Shown: positions 12,153-56,370, counted from the first letter of the stretch. The stretch is 64,000 nucleotides of DNA from Bacteroidota bacterium (GCA_035291905.1 DATDRF010000103.1:2805-66804), one strand, 5' to 3'. The notes: generated by a model from the letters alone, not told the origin. Numbers and translations are program-made.

Positions 12153-13085
12153 ATGGACATCGGAGAGCCTGAACAACAGTCCGATTTGCAGATCGAGGAG
12201 CCTCCTCGCCGCACGTGGCAGGGATCTGTCAAACGTAAGTGGCTGCTCTTGTTGGGCATTGCGCTGGGAATGTGGTTTTTGGTGGAACTTGTGACGCTTC
12301 CCTTCGGCCCGATCGTGCAGTTGGAGAAAGAGAATCCGCGTGAAACCGCCTTCATGATTGAACAGGCTGAAGAGGCGCATAAATCTGGGAGAAGGTTCCG
12401 TGTCGTCCAGAAATGGGTTCCGTTGTCACAAGTGCCGAAGGATGTCGTCAATGCCGTGATTGTTGCGGAGGACGGTCTGTTCTGGAGTCACAGCGGGTTT
12501 GACTGGTTTGAATTCAAAGAGTCGATGGAACGAAATCTTACAGAAGGCCGCGCTGTGCGGGGTGCAAGCACGATCACGCAGCAACTCGTGAAGAATCTCT
12601 ACCTTTCTCCTTCCAAGAATCCACTGCGCAAAATGCGCGAATGGGTCCTCACCTGGTGGATGGAGCAGAATCTCACGAAAAGCAGGATTCTTGAGATCTA
12701 CCTGAATGTCATCGAGTGGGGAAGGGGTATCTACGGAATCGGAGCGGCCGCCCAATGGTACTTTGGAAAACCGGTCAACGAACTTACGAGGGAAGAAGGT
12801 ATACGGCTGGCGGCGGTGATTCCAAATCCGACGCAACGTGGAGCGAATGATGAATCGAACTACATGCAGCGACGAATGGCGATTATTCTCAAACGGATGG
12901 CCGCGCGGGGAATGGTGAAGGATAGCATCGACGCAATGATGAAAGACAGCGTCGAGCAAATGATGGAAGACAGTGTTGAGCAAATGATGGAAGACAGTAT
13001 CAATGTAATACCGATAGACAGCCTTGATGGAATGGCGAAAGACAGCCTTGATGGAATGGCGAAAGACAGCCTCGATGGACTATAA
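12153..13085 (+). CDS. mtgA: Monofunctional biosynthetic peptidoglycan transglycosylase (GT51) with N-terminal membrane anchor and unusual repetitive C-terminal tail
   Basis: GT51 motifs AVIVAEDGLFWSHSGFDW, RGASTITQQLVKNLYLS, RKMREWVLTWWMEQ; TM helix WLLLLGIALGMWFLVELV; last ~60 aa are 9-aa tandem repeats (KDSVEQMME x2, DSLDGMAK x2.5). Confidence 0.8.
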   Translation: MDIGEPEQQSDLQIEEPPRRTWQGSVKRKWLLLLGIALGMWFLVELVTLPFGPIVQLEKENPRETAFMIEQAEEAHKSGRRFRVVQKWVPLSQVPKDVVNAVIVAEDGLFWSHSGFDWFEFKESMERNLTEGRAVRGASTITQQLVKNLYLSPSKNPLRKMREWVLTWWMEQNLTKSRILEIYLNVIEWGRGIYGIGAAAQWYFGKPVNELTREEGIRLAAVIPNPTQRGANDESNYMQRRMAIILKRMAARGMVKDSIDAMMKDSVEQMMEDSVEQMMEDSINVIPIDSLDGMAKDSLDGMAKDSLDGL

Positions 13086-13087
13086 AG
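12931..13087 (+). repeat. Tandem array of about six 27-bp units (each beginning GACAG), two sub-families
   Basis: GACAG recurs at 12940, 12964, 12991, 13018, 13045, 13072. Units gacagtgttgagcaaatgatggaa (x2) and gacagccttgatggaatggcgaaa (x2, plus a truncated third unit gacagcctcgatgga) are near-identical at DNA level. Confidence 0.8.
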
Positions 13088-13734
13088 ACATTGATACACT
13101 CCTCGATGAGGGAGAGGGATTTCAGGTCGAATTCAAGCGGAAGGTCTCTACTGCCGAAAAGATTGCCCGGACCCTCATTGCCTTTGCCAACACGAAAGGC
13201 GGTACCATCGTTTTCGGCGTGGACGATGATAAATCCATTGTCGGTGTCGACAGCGAGAAGGCCGAGATAGAAATGATTCAGACCGCGGGTGGTTTTCTGT
13301 GCGATCCGCCGATCGAAATGCAGGTCGACATCATCCCGTATAGGGGAAAAGATGTTGTTGCGGTGACGGTCGAGGAAAGCAAGGTCAAGCCTCATTATCT
13401 CGTCGGTAAAGCAAACGGGTCCGATGATGCCGATTCAAAAGTACTCATTCGGGTGAAGGACAAGACGGTGGTTGCCAGCAAAGAGGTGATAAGAATTCTT
13501 GAAGCGGAAAATCCGGAAGCCCCTCCGCTGAGAATTGCCATAGGCGAGGTTGAACGTCGGCTTTTGGATCACCTGGATAAGAGCGACAGGATTACCGTGA
13601 AGGAATTCAGCAAGCTTGTCAACATTTCGCATCGACGGGCATCACGGACGCTTATTCAACTTGTGAGGGCGGGAGTGCTGAGGATTCACACACATGAAAA
13701 AGAAGACTTCTACACCCTGGCGTTTGATCAATGA
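13075..13734 (+). CDS. AlbA_2 (Schlafen-like, divergent AAA) domain protein with C-terminal winged-helix; putative transcriptional regulator
   Basis: DTLLDEGEGFQVEFKRK...KIARTLIAFANTKGGTIVFGVDD is the AlbA_2 signature; C-terminal ITVKEFSKLVNISHRRASRTLIQLV looks HTH-like. ATG 13075 chosen (track start 13024 lies inside the tandem repeat). Confidence 0.6.
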   Translation: MDYKDIDTLLDEGEGFQVEFKRKVSTAEKIARTLIAFANTKGGTIVFGVDDDKSIVGVDSEKAEIEMIQTAGGFLCDPPIEMQVDIIPYRGKDVVAVTVEESKVKPHYLVGKANGSDDADSKVLIRVKDKTVVASKEVIRILEAENPEAPPLRIAIGEVERRLLDHLDKSDRITVKEFSKLVNISHRRASRTLIQLVRAGVLRIHTHEKEDFYTLAFDQ

Positions 13735-47681: not shown

Positions 47682-47779
47682 ATCGGGAACTCGCAGGAGG
47701 AAGCGTTCGGACTGGAAAGTGGAAATTGCATTCCTCCTTCCGCATTCCGCAATCCGAATTCACACTTTGAAAGTACCCC

Positions 47780-56297: not shown

Positions 56298-56370
56298 CAA
56301 CTGGAAAATTGGAAATTGTAAAAGGAACATTTCAATTTTCAATTACCAATTTTTCAATTCTCAATGTTAG

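Follow-up and report, generated by a model that had tools for sequence, protein, structure and literature searches.

In this study, a 64,000-nucleotide (nt) stretch of DNA from a Bacteroidota bacterium (GCA_035291905.1 DATDRF010000103.1:2805-66804), hereafter referred to as the window, was found to contain an in-frame tandem array of seven 24-nt units at the 3′ end of mtgA, the gene for a monofunctional peptidoglycan glycosyltransferase of family GT51. The array forms a repetitive C-terminal tail on MtgA and runs into the start codon of the next gene, which encodes a protein with an AlbA_2 (Schlafen-type) domain and a winged helix. The number of units varies between strains of the same species in whole steps of 24 nt that leave both genes open. 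We consider it likely that mtgA lost its stop codon and was extended through the AlbA_2 leader, that slippage or unequal recombination then multiplied the added segment to give a coding minisatellite with a 24-nt unit, i.e., a variable number tandem repeat (VNTR), and that the length of the resulting tail is nearly neutral.

The 24-bp array and its host gene

The array occupies positions 12912-13079 on the plus strand, with units beginning at 12912, 12936, 12960, 12984, 13008, 13032, and 13056, and accounts for the tail of MtgA (residues 255-310). The successive units are translated as MVKDSIDA, MMKDSVEQ, MMEDSVEQ, MMEDSINV, IPIDSLDG, MAKDSLDG, and MAKDSLDG, and are directly followed after 13079 by CTA TAA, a final leucine and the stop codon. 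Tandem Repeats Finder (TRF) reported a period of 24 with 6.9 copies at 12911-13075 (scores 87-115), while all its remaining rows in the 64-kb window scored 47 or lower, and a repeat search gave seven in-register copies spaced by exactly 24 nt. The array is far above chance expectation. The initial annotation of this DNA had described about six units of 27 bp, each encoding nine residues, at 12931-13087. The actual period is 24 bp and eight residues, as are the motifs that were quoted at that time (DSVEQMME and DSLDGMAK), the units number seven, and the best register is 12912-13079, or 12921-13085 if the units are made to begin with GACAG. The latter register, on which the initial annotation was based, does exist, but its first unit (12921) begins with GATAG instead.

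The register of 12912-13079 was fixed by cross-species comparison of the distance between the Met codon at the end of the MtgA core and the AlbA_2 ATG. The array begins at the Met codon (12912) where tail-less orthologues end and finishes in the GATGGA that holds the AlbA_2 ATG at 13075; thus, it stands in place of a former intergenic spacer. With GACAGC as the beginning of the unit, units 5 and 6 (13017-13040 and 13041-13064) are identical at 24/24 positions and units 2 and 3 at 22/24, and perfect periodicity is confined to 56 nt (units 5-7) of the 168-nt array.

The mtgA coding sequence spans 12153-13085 on the plus strand and is an open reading frame (ORF) for 310 amino acids (aa). Its core (12153-12914) comprises a short N-terminal segment, a predicted membrane helix and the GT51 domain, and ends with Met254, which is the final residue of tail-less orthologues that terminate in ..RMAARGM. 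PF00912 (Transgly) matched aa 84-249 (E 7.8e-56) and was the sole Pfam domain found in the 310 aa, the models for penicillin-binding proteins being far under their own cut-offs. The equivalog model TIGR02070 scored 212.2 bits against a curated cut-off of 182.65, aligning aa 42-251 with profile positions 10-220 of 224, which places the protein in the MtgA class. The GT51 catalytic motifs (the E in EDxxFxxHxG and the E in RKxxE) are present as AEDGLFWSHSGFD and RKMREW, respectively, and E106 and E163 are invariant in an alignment of 32 sequences. In the AlphaFold model, a helix at aa 22-47 covers a hydrophobic stretch that is immediately preceded by KRK, and the core is modeled with confidence. 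MtgA is therefore predicted to be anchored in the membrane by one helix near its N-terminus and to lack a transpeptidase domain. The identical protein is encoded by five public contigs and deposited at NCBI as HLE32097.1. The window mtgA is thus a genuine MtgA, i.e., a standard GT51 enzyme plus a repetitive C-terminal tail, whose last 56 residues lie outside every Pfam and NCBIfam model, as nothing matches past aa 251. In these respects the TRF, Pfam and TIGR02070 results bear out the initial annotation, which had recognized a tandem array appended to an ordinary GT51 enzyme and overlapping the start of the next gene.

Copy number among closely related strains

The alleles were read from assembled contigs of this uncultured groundwater bacterium, namely 19 contigs plus four more found via a pattern scan. 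The 7-unit allele was present in the window and L001-L005. The 6-unit allele, found in L006-L015, L061, and L062, has one MAKDSLDG unit fewer, and the 5-unit allele, found in L016-L018 and L063, is additionally without one MMEDSVEQ unit. When 1268 nt on the upstream side of the array and 901 nt on the downstream side (~2.2 kb) were compared, the flanks of the 6-unit contigs and of the 5-unit contig L018 were 99.6-99.9% identical to the window with zero indels, and those of the 5-unit contigs L016 and L017 were ~98% identical. Clustering at 90% protein identity places the window MtgA in a group of 17 members, of which 15 were listed; 14 of these 15 have lengths of 310, 302, or 294 aa, and the remaining member has 297 aa. 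Every allele was recovered repeatedly by different assemblers and from different sources, namely JGI (33000253xx series), ENA (k141; ERZ272547xx-ERZ272548xx series and ERZ28564412), and Logan. The pattern scan of JGI metagenomes returned only four contigs and no new allele class (i.e., no 4-unit or 8-unit form).

The head-to-tail units are thus at least 10 bp long and a multiple of three, they leave the frame of ORF 12153-13085 intact, and their number is polymorphic among close relatives in whole-unit steps, all of which characterize a coding VNTR. The copy-number variation among near-identical strains is well supported and a collapse during assembly unlikely, because the alleles recur in independent assemblies and perfect periodicity extends over no more than 56 nt. 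A comparison of copy number across related strains had been suggested in the initial annotation, as had recent expansion or contraction from the near-identity of adjacent units; both are supported by alleles of seven, six, and five units within flanks of 99.6-99.9% identity. The expectation that unit changes would be in frame also held, as the proteins are 310, 302, and 294 aa long and both genes remain open.

Given that the sister species L019 has five units, five is likely the ancestral number and, therefore, units 3 and 6 of the window are recent duplications. Unit 3 (MMEDSVEQ, 12960-12983, plus strand) is missing in the 5-unit alleles and in L019, and unit 6 (MAKDSLDG, 13032-13055, plus strand) is found only in the 7-unit alleles and is identical to unit 7 at 23/24 positions. 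Two variants of unit 3 (CGTC or TGTT) and the presence or absence of unit 6 exist in 4/4 possible combinations, represented by the window, L001, L006, and L061, and recurrent change of the array (by duplication or gene conversion) or recombination is therefore needed. It should also be mentioned that both DSVEQMME units (window 12945-12992) are identical at the DNA level in L001 and L061 and that they differ at two synonymous sites in 15 other contigs.

Related species and the proposed origin

Tails of the same kind were found in related species. In every tail-bearing genome (four species, three alleles), the core Met codon and the AlbA_2 ATG are 19+24n nt apart, with n from 2 to 6. The value of n is 2 in L059 (three units; MtgA 73% identical to that of the window), 3 in L020 (four units; 68%), 4 in L019 (five units; 80%), and, within the species of the window, 4 in L018 (five units), 5 in L006 (six units), and 6 in the window itself (seven units). 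The mtgA genes of the tail-bearing species end with ..DSLDGL(QRY) and a stop codon within the AlbA_2 start. The mtgA gene of the tail-less L022, whose product is a 71%-identical orthologue, ends with ..GGA ATG TAG, which is followed by a 15-nt spacer and then by ATG GAC TAC AAA of AlbA_2. The gene row of relA/spoT, ruvX, mtgA, AlbA_2, a spoU-type methylase gene (minus strand), cmk, and ispH was kept in every related contig that was fetched.

A search with the AlbA_2 protein yielded 34 species-representative loci, all from metagenome-assembled genomes labeled Ignavibacteria, Ignavibacteriales, Bacteroidota, or similar. In most of these 34 loci, mtgA is located directly upstream of AlbA_2, usually ends with ..RM.ARG[ML] and a stop codon, and is separated from AlbA_2 by a 5-21 nt spacer. 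The 120 best MtgA homologues are mostly 246-257 aa long. The remark in the initial annotation that such a tail is unusual for mtgA is thus supported, and the orthologue alignment that it proposed revealed the tail in related species with three, four, and five units and its absence from most others.

We propose that in the ancestor of a small Ignavibacteria-like clade, the mtgA stop codon after ..ARG-Met was lost and mtgA was then read through the short AlbA_2 leader to a stop codon inside the first codons of AlbA_2. The 24-nt stretch extending from the Met codon to the GATGGA with the AlbA_2 start would subsequently have been duplicated head to tail. Slippage or unequal recombination between the units would then have led to gain and loss in whole 24-nt steps, a process that is probably still ongoing. 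Because 24 is a multiple of three, a change in copy number never breaks mtgA nor moves its stop codon relative to the AlbA_2 start, and would alter only the length of the tail and the number of copied in-frame upstream ATGs. AlbA_2 would be translated from ATG 13075 in tight coupling with mtgA, and the polymorphism in tail length is most likely nearly neutral.

Translation, constraint, and predicted structure of the tail

Among the 19 contigs, 6/6 variable sites of the array fall on third codon positions of mtgA and all are synonymous; a seventh is found in L061. In the mtgA core, 10/20 variable sites are at third positions, and the chance of 6/6 is ~0.001. The ratio of non-synonymous to synonymous substitution rates (dN/dS), computed between the 5-unit allele and L019 (L019:3260-3374 for the tail), is 0.09 for the GT51 core, 0.19 for the N-terminal segment, and 0.38 for the tail (11 non-synonymous and 5 synonymous substitutions). 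Thus, the array is translated in the mtgA frame and is under weak purifying selection. Across the four species, [KE]-D-S-[VLI]-[DE] is kept in nearly every unit. Between the 5-unit allele and L019, dS is 0.31 in the tail vs. 0.80 in the mtgA core, with small numbers of substitutions.

AlphaFold, run with the 32-sequence alignment, placed a helix at aa 258-283 of the tail with predicted local distance difference test (pLDDT) values of 59-71, and aa 284-310 had pLDDT values below 50. The tail is thus probably a helix followed by a disordered stretch, as far as a low-confidence prediction can indicate. The topology of MtgA-type enzymes is known and, when combined with the N-terminal helix and the KRK that precedes it, suggests that the acidic and Met-rich tail should be on the periplasmic side of the membrane-anchored glycosyltransferase.

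No described repeat or domain family in Pfam or NCBIfam matched the tail. An exhaustive phmmer search of 1.8 billion representatives returned 27 hits, all of which were unrelated octapeptide-array proteins with arrays of their own, such as DSVKPLTH and EDSLDVIA; the likeness is periodic and compositional rather than homologous, and membership of the tail in a repeat family was rejected. A word-index search with the tail alone gave no candidates and was uninformative, as the repetitive words were probably not indexed. A literature search for MtgA with tandem repeats retrieved nothing relevant and no description of such a tail. Met-rich motifs are associated with copper binding and EF-hand-like motifs with calcium binding, and both models were set against the tail and dropped as unsupported, since it has no His, no MxxM pattern and no DxDxDG spacing. 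Two minus-strand ORFs across the array (79 and 131 aa) were taken as shadows of the repeat, given the codon-position-specific polymorphism on the plus strand.

The AlbA_2 gene and its start codon

At its likeliest start, the AlbA_2 gene (13075-13734, plus strand) encodes 219 aa. In this form PF04326 matches aa 14-132 (E 2e-24), and weak helix-turn-helix matches are found at aa 160-206. The gene thus begins before mtgA has ended, and from its start codon to the stop codon of mtgA (TAA at 13083-13085) the two overlap by 11 nt (13075-13085, plus strand). In the initial annotation, the N-terminus of AlbA_2 had been read from the +1 frame of the array. This frame is indeed open from TTG 13024 or ATG 13027 into AlbA_2 and has in-frame ATGs at 13027, 13051, and 13075, one in each unit, but the AlbA_2 protein probably does not begin with the peptide MMEWRKTALMEWRKTAS in view of the 219-aa orthologues, a stop codon in L019 and the second-position polymorphisms described below. 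The two ATGs upstream (13027-13029 and 13051-13053, plus strand) appear to be born of the repeat, as copies of the real start and its leader, and the 30 nt preceding 13051 are identical to those preceding 13075 save position -3 (T vs. C).

We suggest that the real start of AlbA_2 is most likely ATG 13075 and that the MMEWRK… extension represents start codons copied by the repeat, because the orthologues of L019, L020, and L022 are all 219 aa long, the orthologue N-terminus M[DN]YKDID comes right after the spacer in at least 20 species, L019 has an in-frame stop five codons upstream of the AlbA_2 ATG, and the Pfam domain begins at residue 14. Moreover, the array polymorphisms at third positions of mtgA correspond to second codon positions of the AlbA_2 frame, which is therefore unprotected upstream of 13075. 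Initiation at the upstream ATGs 13027 and 13051 is possible, and an N-terminal peptide MDYKDIDTLLDEGEGFQVEFK, as opposed to MEWR…, would be the mark that tells a start at 13075 from those upstream. Public gene calls for AlbA_2 are 235 aa on the 7-unit contigs and 227 aa on the 6- and 5-unit contigs, and this tracking of the repeat number by gene-call length looks like an artefact of start-site annotation.

The last unit (unit 7, 13056-13079, plus strand) also provides AlbA_2 with its 5′ leader and start codon and is conserved across species at the nucleotide level. The 19 nt before the AlbA_2 ATG are identical at 15-17/19 positions among the four species, while the identity at third positions of the core is 0.46-0.66. 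This unit probably carries a nucleotide-level constraint as the AlbA_2 leader, of which the array units would be copies. The RNA fold of 12900-13130 has an ordinary energy (z = -0.47), Rfam gave no match at E ≤ 1 in 12700-13300, and no promoter- or terminator-like site was found in the array. An inverted repeat of 20 nt with 80% identity was taken as a chance occurrence.

Variation at the mtgA-AlbA_2 junction

Within L022-L053, where AlbA_2 starts near position 2501 in most cases, the adjacency of mtgA and AlbA_2 extends to loci in which AlbA_2 is only 44-47% identical (L051-L053), with a 5-21 nt spacer or an overlap. In L021 (2501-3955; P0027) and in P0013, mtgA and the gene for the AlbA_2 and winged helix-turn-helix (wHTH) domains are fused as one ORF of 484-485 aa (..ARGMIEGES-MNYKDID..). 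A sequencing error is unlikely, because two sequence-diverged assemblies both keep the frame open. If translation does not in fact begin at the internal ATG, the fusion would attach a DNA-binding-type domain to a glycosyltransferase at its periplasmic end. Across these loci, a gene for a cell-wall enzyme is thus kept next to one for a putative nucleic-acid-binding protein.

C-terminal tails of 49-55 aa that reach up to or into the AlbA_2 start are also found in other MtgA lineages, i.e., in L027 (2330-2504), P0094, and P0088. Those of L027 and P0094 carry degenerate DS-headed repeats of ~7 aa, and that of P0088 has only scattered DSL/DSA motifs. On the L027 tail, TRF reported nothing and the repeat search only two 21-nt copies. 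The tail periodicity of this second clade is weak and is not claimed as an array. The mtgA stop and AlbA_2 start of L027 overlap as ATGA. Acidic tails of ~30 aa that end in an ATGA overlap were noticed in L031, L042, and L044, and L043 has a 20-nt overlap, in each case just before position 2501.

Alternative explanations

Several observations weigh against the origin by stop-codon loss and the near-neutrality of tail length proposed above. In a rough neighbor-joining tree, the tail-less P0005 nests within the tail-bearing clade, and a single origin of the tail therefore needs a later loss. The DS-headed repetitive tails of the second MtgA clade (P0088, P0094, and L027) hint at selection on the tail and hence against near-neutrality. 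The dN/dS of the tail is based on just 16 substitutions, the periplasmic location and the translation start are themselves predictions, and a collapse of identical units is conceivable in some short-read assemblies, chiefly the Logan contigs with k=31.

The first alternative is that the array is an adaptive length switch, in which contingency-type gain and loss of units tunes a functional periplasmic tail of MtgA (its reach, partners, or stability) and maintains standing variation in the cell wall. Under this explanation, one would account for the copy-number differences between near-identical strains that have no other indel in 2.2 kb, for the 4/4 combinations of two array variants, which are consistent with recurrent change, for the degree of purifying selection on the tail, for the [KE]-D-S-[VLI]-[DE] motif retained in nearly all units of four species, and for the DS-headed repetitive tails of the second clade. 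Expression and frame are unchanged in all alleles, however, and there are just 2-3 identical units for slippage, which is therefore expected to occur at rates far under those at which classic simple-sequence contingency loci mutate. Most related species thrive without a tail, the tail is disordered or of low confidence in the model and has no relative in any described family, and no evidence ties an allele to a condition. We therefore regard an adaptive switch as unlikely. The initial annotation had likened the array to a contingency-type locus; as no allele turns either gene off and there is no sign of adaptive length, a polymorphic coding VNTR fits better.

Somewhat less probable still is an array that acts mainly on AlbA_2, in which the copies of the leader and start would set the number of starts, yielding isoforms 8 or 16 aa longer or decoys, and would alter the coupling to mtgA, with the MtgA tail as a by-product. 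The three in-frame ATGs, the near-identical 30 nt that precede 13051 and 13075, and the choice of upstream ATGs by gene callers are all in line with such a role, as is the adjacency of mtgA and AlbA_2 in most of the 34 loci, including overlaps and in-frame fusions. The conservation of the last unit beyond that of core synonymous sites and the low dS of the tail (0.31 vs. 0.80) also suggest nucleotide-level constraint on the leader. The polymorphisms of the array, however, all fall on second codon positions of the AlbA_2 frame, units 1-4 hold stop codons in that frame, L019 has its stop five codons upstream of the ATG, and the orthologues are uniformly 219 aa long. A signal of RNA structure is also absent (z = -0.47).

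It is similarly doubtful that the two effects are combined, i.e., that in Ignavibacteria-like bacteria the DS-headed tail with repeats of 7-8 aa gives MtgA a functional module in the periplasm, for instance an arm that binds partners or cations or a spacer that confers flexibility, which would have evolved at least twice at the mtgA/AlbA_2 junction, with a length tuned by slippage and with units that also set the number of AlbA_2/wHTH starts. If this were true, one hypermutable tract would make a cell-wall enzyme and a DNA-binding protein co-vary.

Finally, a single true copy number from which the alleles derive by collapse or expansion of identical units is highly improbable: although all data are short-read metagenome assemblies and the Logan k of 31 does not span the 56 nt over which units 5-7 are perfectly periodic, this stretch is far shorter than the k of 141 used elsewhere, the alleles were recovered independently (seven units on 6 contigs, six units on at least 12, and five units on at least 4), units 2 and 3 differ at two sites in most alleles so that their simple collapse is impossible, another species (L019) likewise has five units at the orthologous array, and L016 and L017 couple five units with 2% flank divergence.

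Implications and other features

A nearly neutral coding VNTR born of stop-codon loss would illustrate a route to repeat tails, in which a stop codon is lost at a tight gene junction and the leader of the next gene is then amplified. The array is a clean population-level case of a minisatellite within a coding sequence, in an environmental bacterium that is uncultured; its direct value is modest. It could be used as a strain marker in aquifer data sets, where five, six, or seven units distinguish strains with 99.6-99.9% identity. For annotation, the public AlbA_2 gene calls appear to be 8-16 codons too long, with an excess that tracks the repeat number. The pairing of mtgA with AlbA_2/wHTH, including the in-frame fusions, would be worth studying if the tail or the copied starts were functional; nothing found here requires that.

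Elsewhere in the window, the 3′ end of AlbA_2 (stop codon at 13732-13734) overlaps by 7 nt the 3′ end of a convergent SpoU-type methyltransferase gene (minus strand, ending at 13728), an overlap that recurs in the gene calls of all related contigs. Two short tandem repeats with 7-nt units, TTTCAAT x5 (56330-56365) and GCATTCC x4.9 (47728-47761), were also found, with TRF scores of 40-47.

Comparison with known systems

The array shares its unit gain and loss with contingency loci, in which simple sequence repeats bring about phase variation (Moxon, Bayliss and Hood 2006, as cited in PMC12817950). Like these loci, it is a repeat tract that is polymorphic within a species and mutates by whole units well above the surrounding DNA. 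Its unit is 24 nt long and in frame, however, and causes neither frameshifts nor altered promoter spacing, and on/off states are absent. Identical units are few, and the host gene is that of a housekeeping cell-wall enzyme rather than a surface antigen or a restriction-modification gene. Switching or grading of expression by repeat number, by which phase variation is recognized, was not observed, as mtgA and AlbA_2 are open and their overlap is constant in all alleles.

The closest analogue appears to be the X region of spa in Staphylococcus aureus, in which repeats of 21-27 bp, most commonly 24 bp, vary by duplication and deletion of units and by point mutation (PMC3605283). In both arrays, head-to-tail units of ~24 bp are translated into octapeptides within the C-terminal region of a protein of the cell envelope, and the number of units differs between close strains by whole-unit changes that keep the frame. 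In contrast to the array described here, spa encodes a wall-anchored surface protein of a Gram-positive pathogen, with its repeats upstream of the sorting signal. The array of mtgA has only 3-7 units and belongs to an environmental diderm, where it makes up the very C-terminal end of a biosynthetic enzyme that is anchored in the membrane. It apparently derives from the region in which the next gene starts and has continued to overlap it.

With regard to its host, aa 1-254 of the window protein resemble any MtgA (TIGR02070/GT51) in that a lone membrane helix at the N-terminus is combined with a GT51 domain carrying the catalytic motifs and a transpeptidase domain is absent, while the 56-aa repetitive tail past the normal end point sets it apart. 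With regard to the junction, the array is similar to stop-loss extensions of overlapping, coupled genes, in that the mtgA stop codon would have moved into the first codons of AlbA_2, with an overlap of 11-20 nt, within the tightly packed row of relA, ruvX, mtgA, and AlbA_2; the ATGA overlaps of L027, L031, L042, and L044 are also of this type. It differs from a plain stop-loss extension in that the segment read through appears to have been amplified into an array, while the lineage of L021 and P0013 was fused in frame instead. Taken together, the array is an in-frame coding minisatellite of a known type, and what is unusual about it is that its host is a housekeeping MtgA and that it apparently arose from sequence at the start of the following gene, with which it still overlaps.

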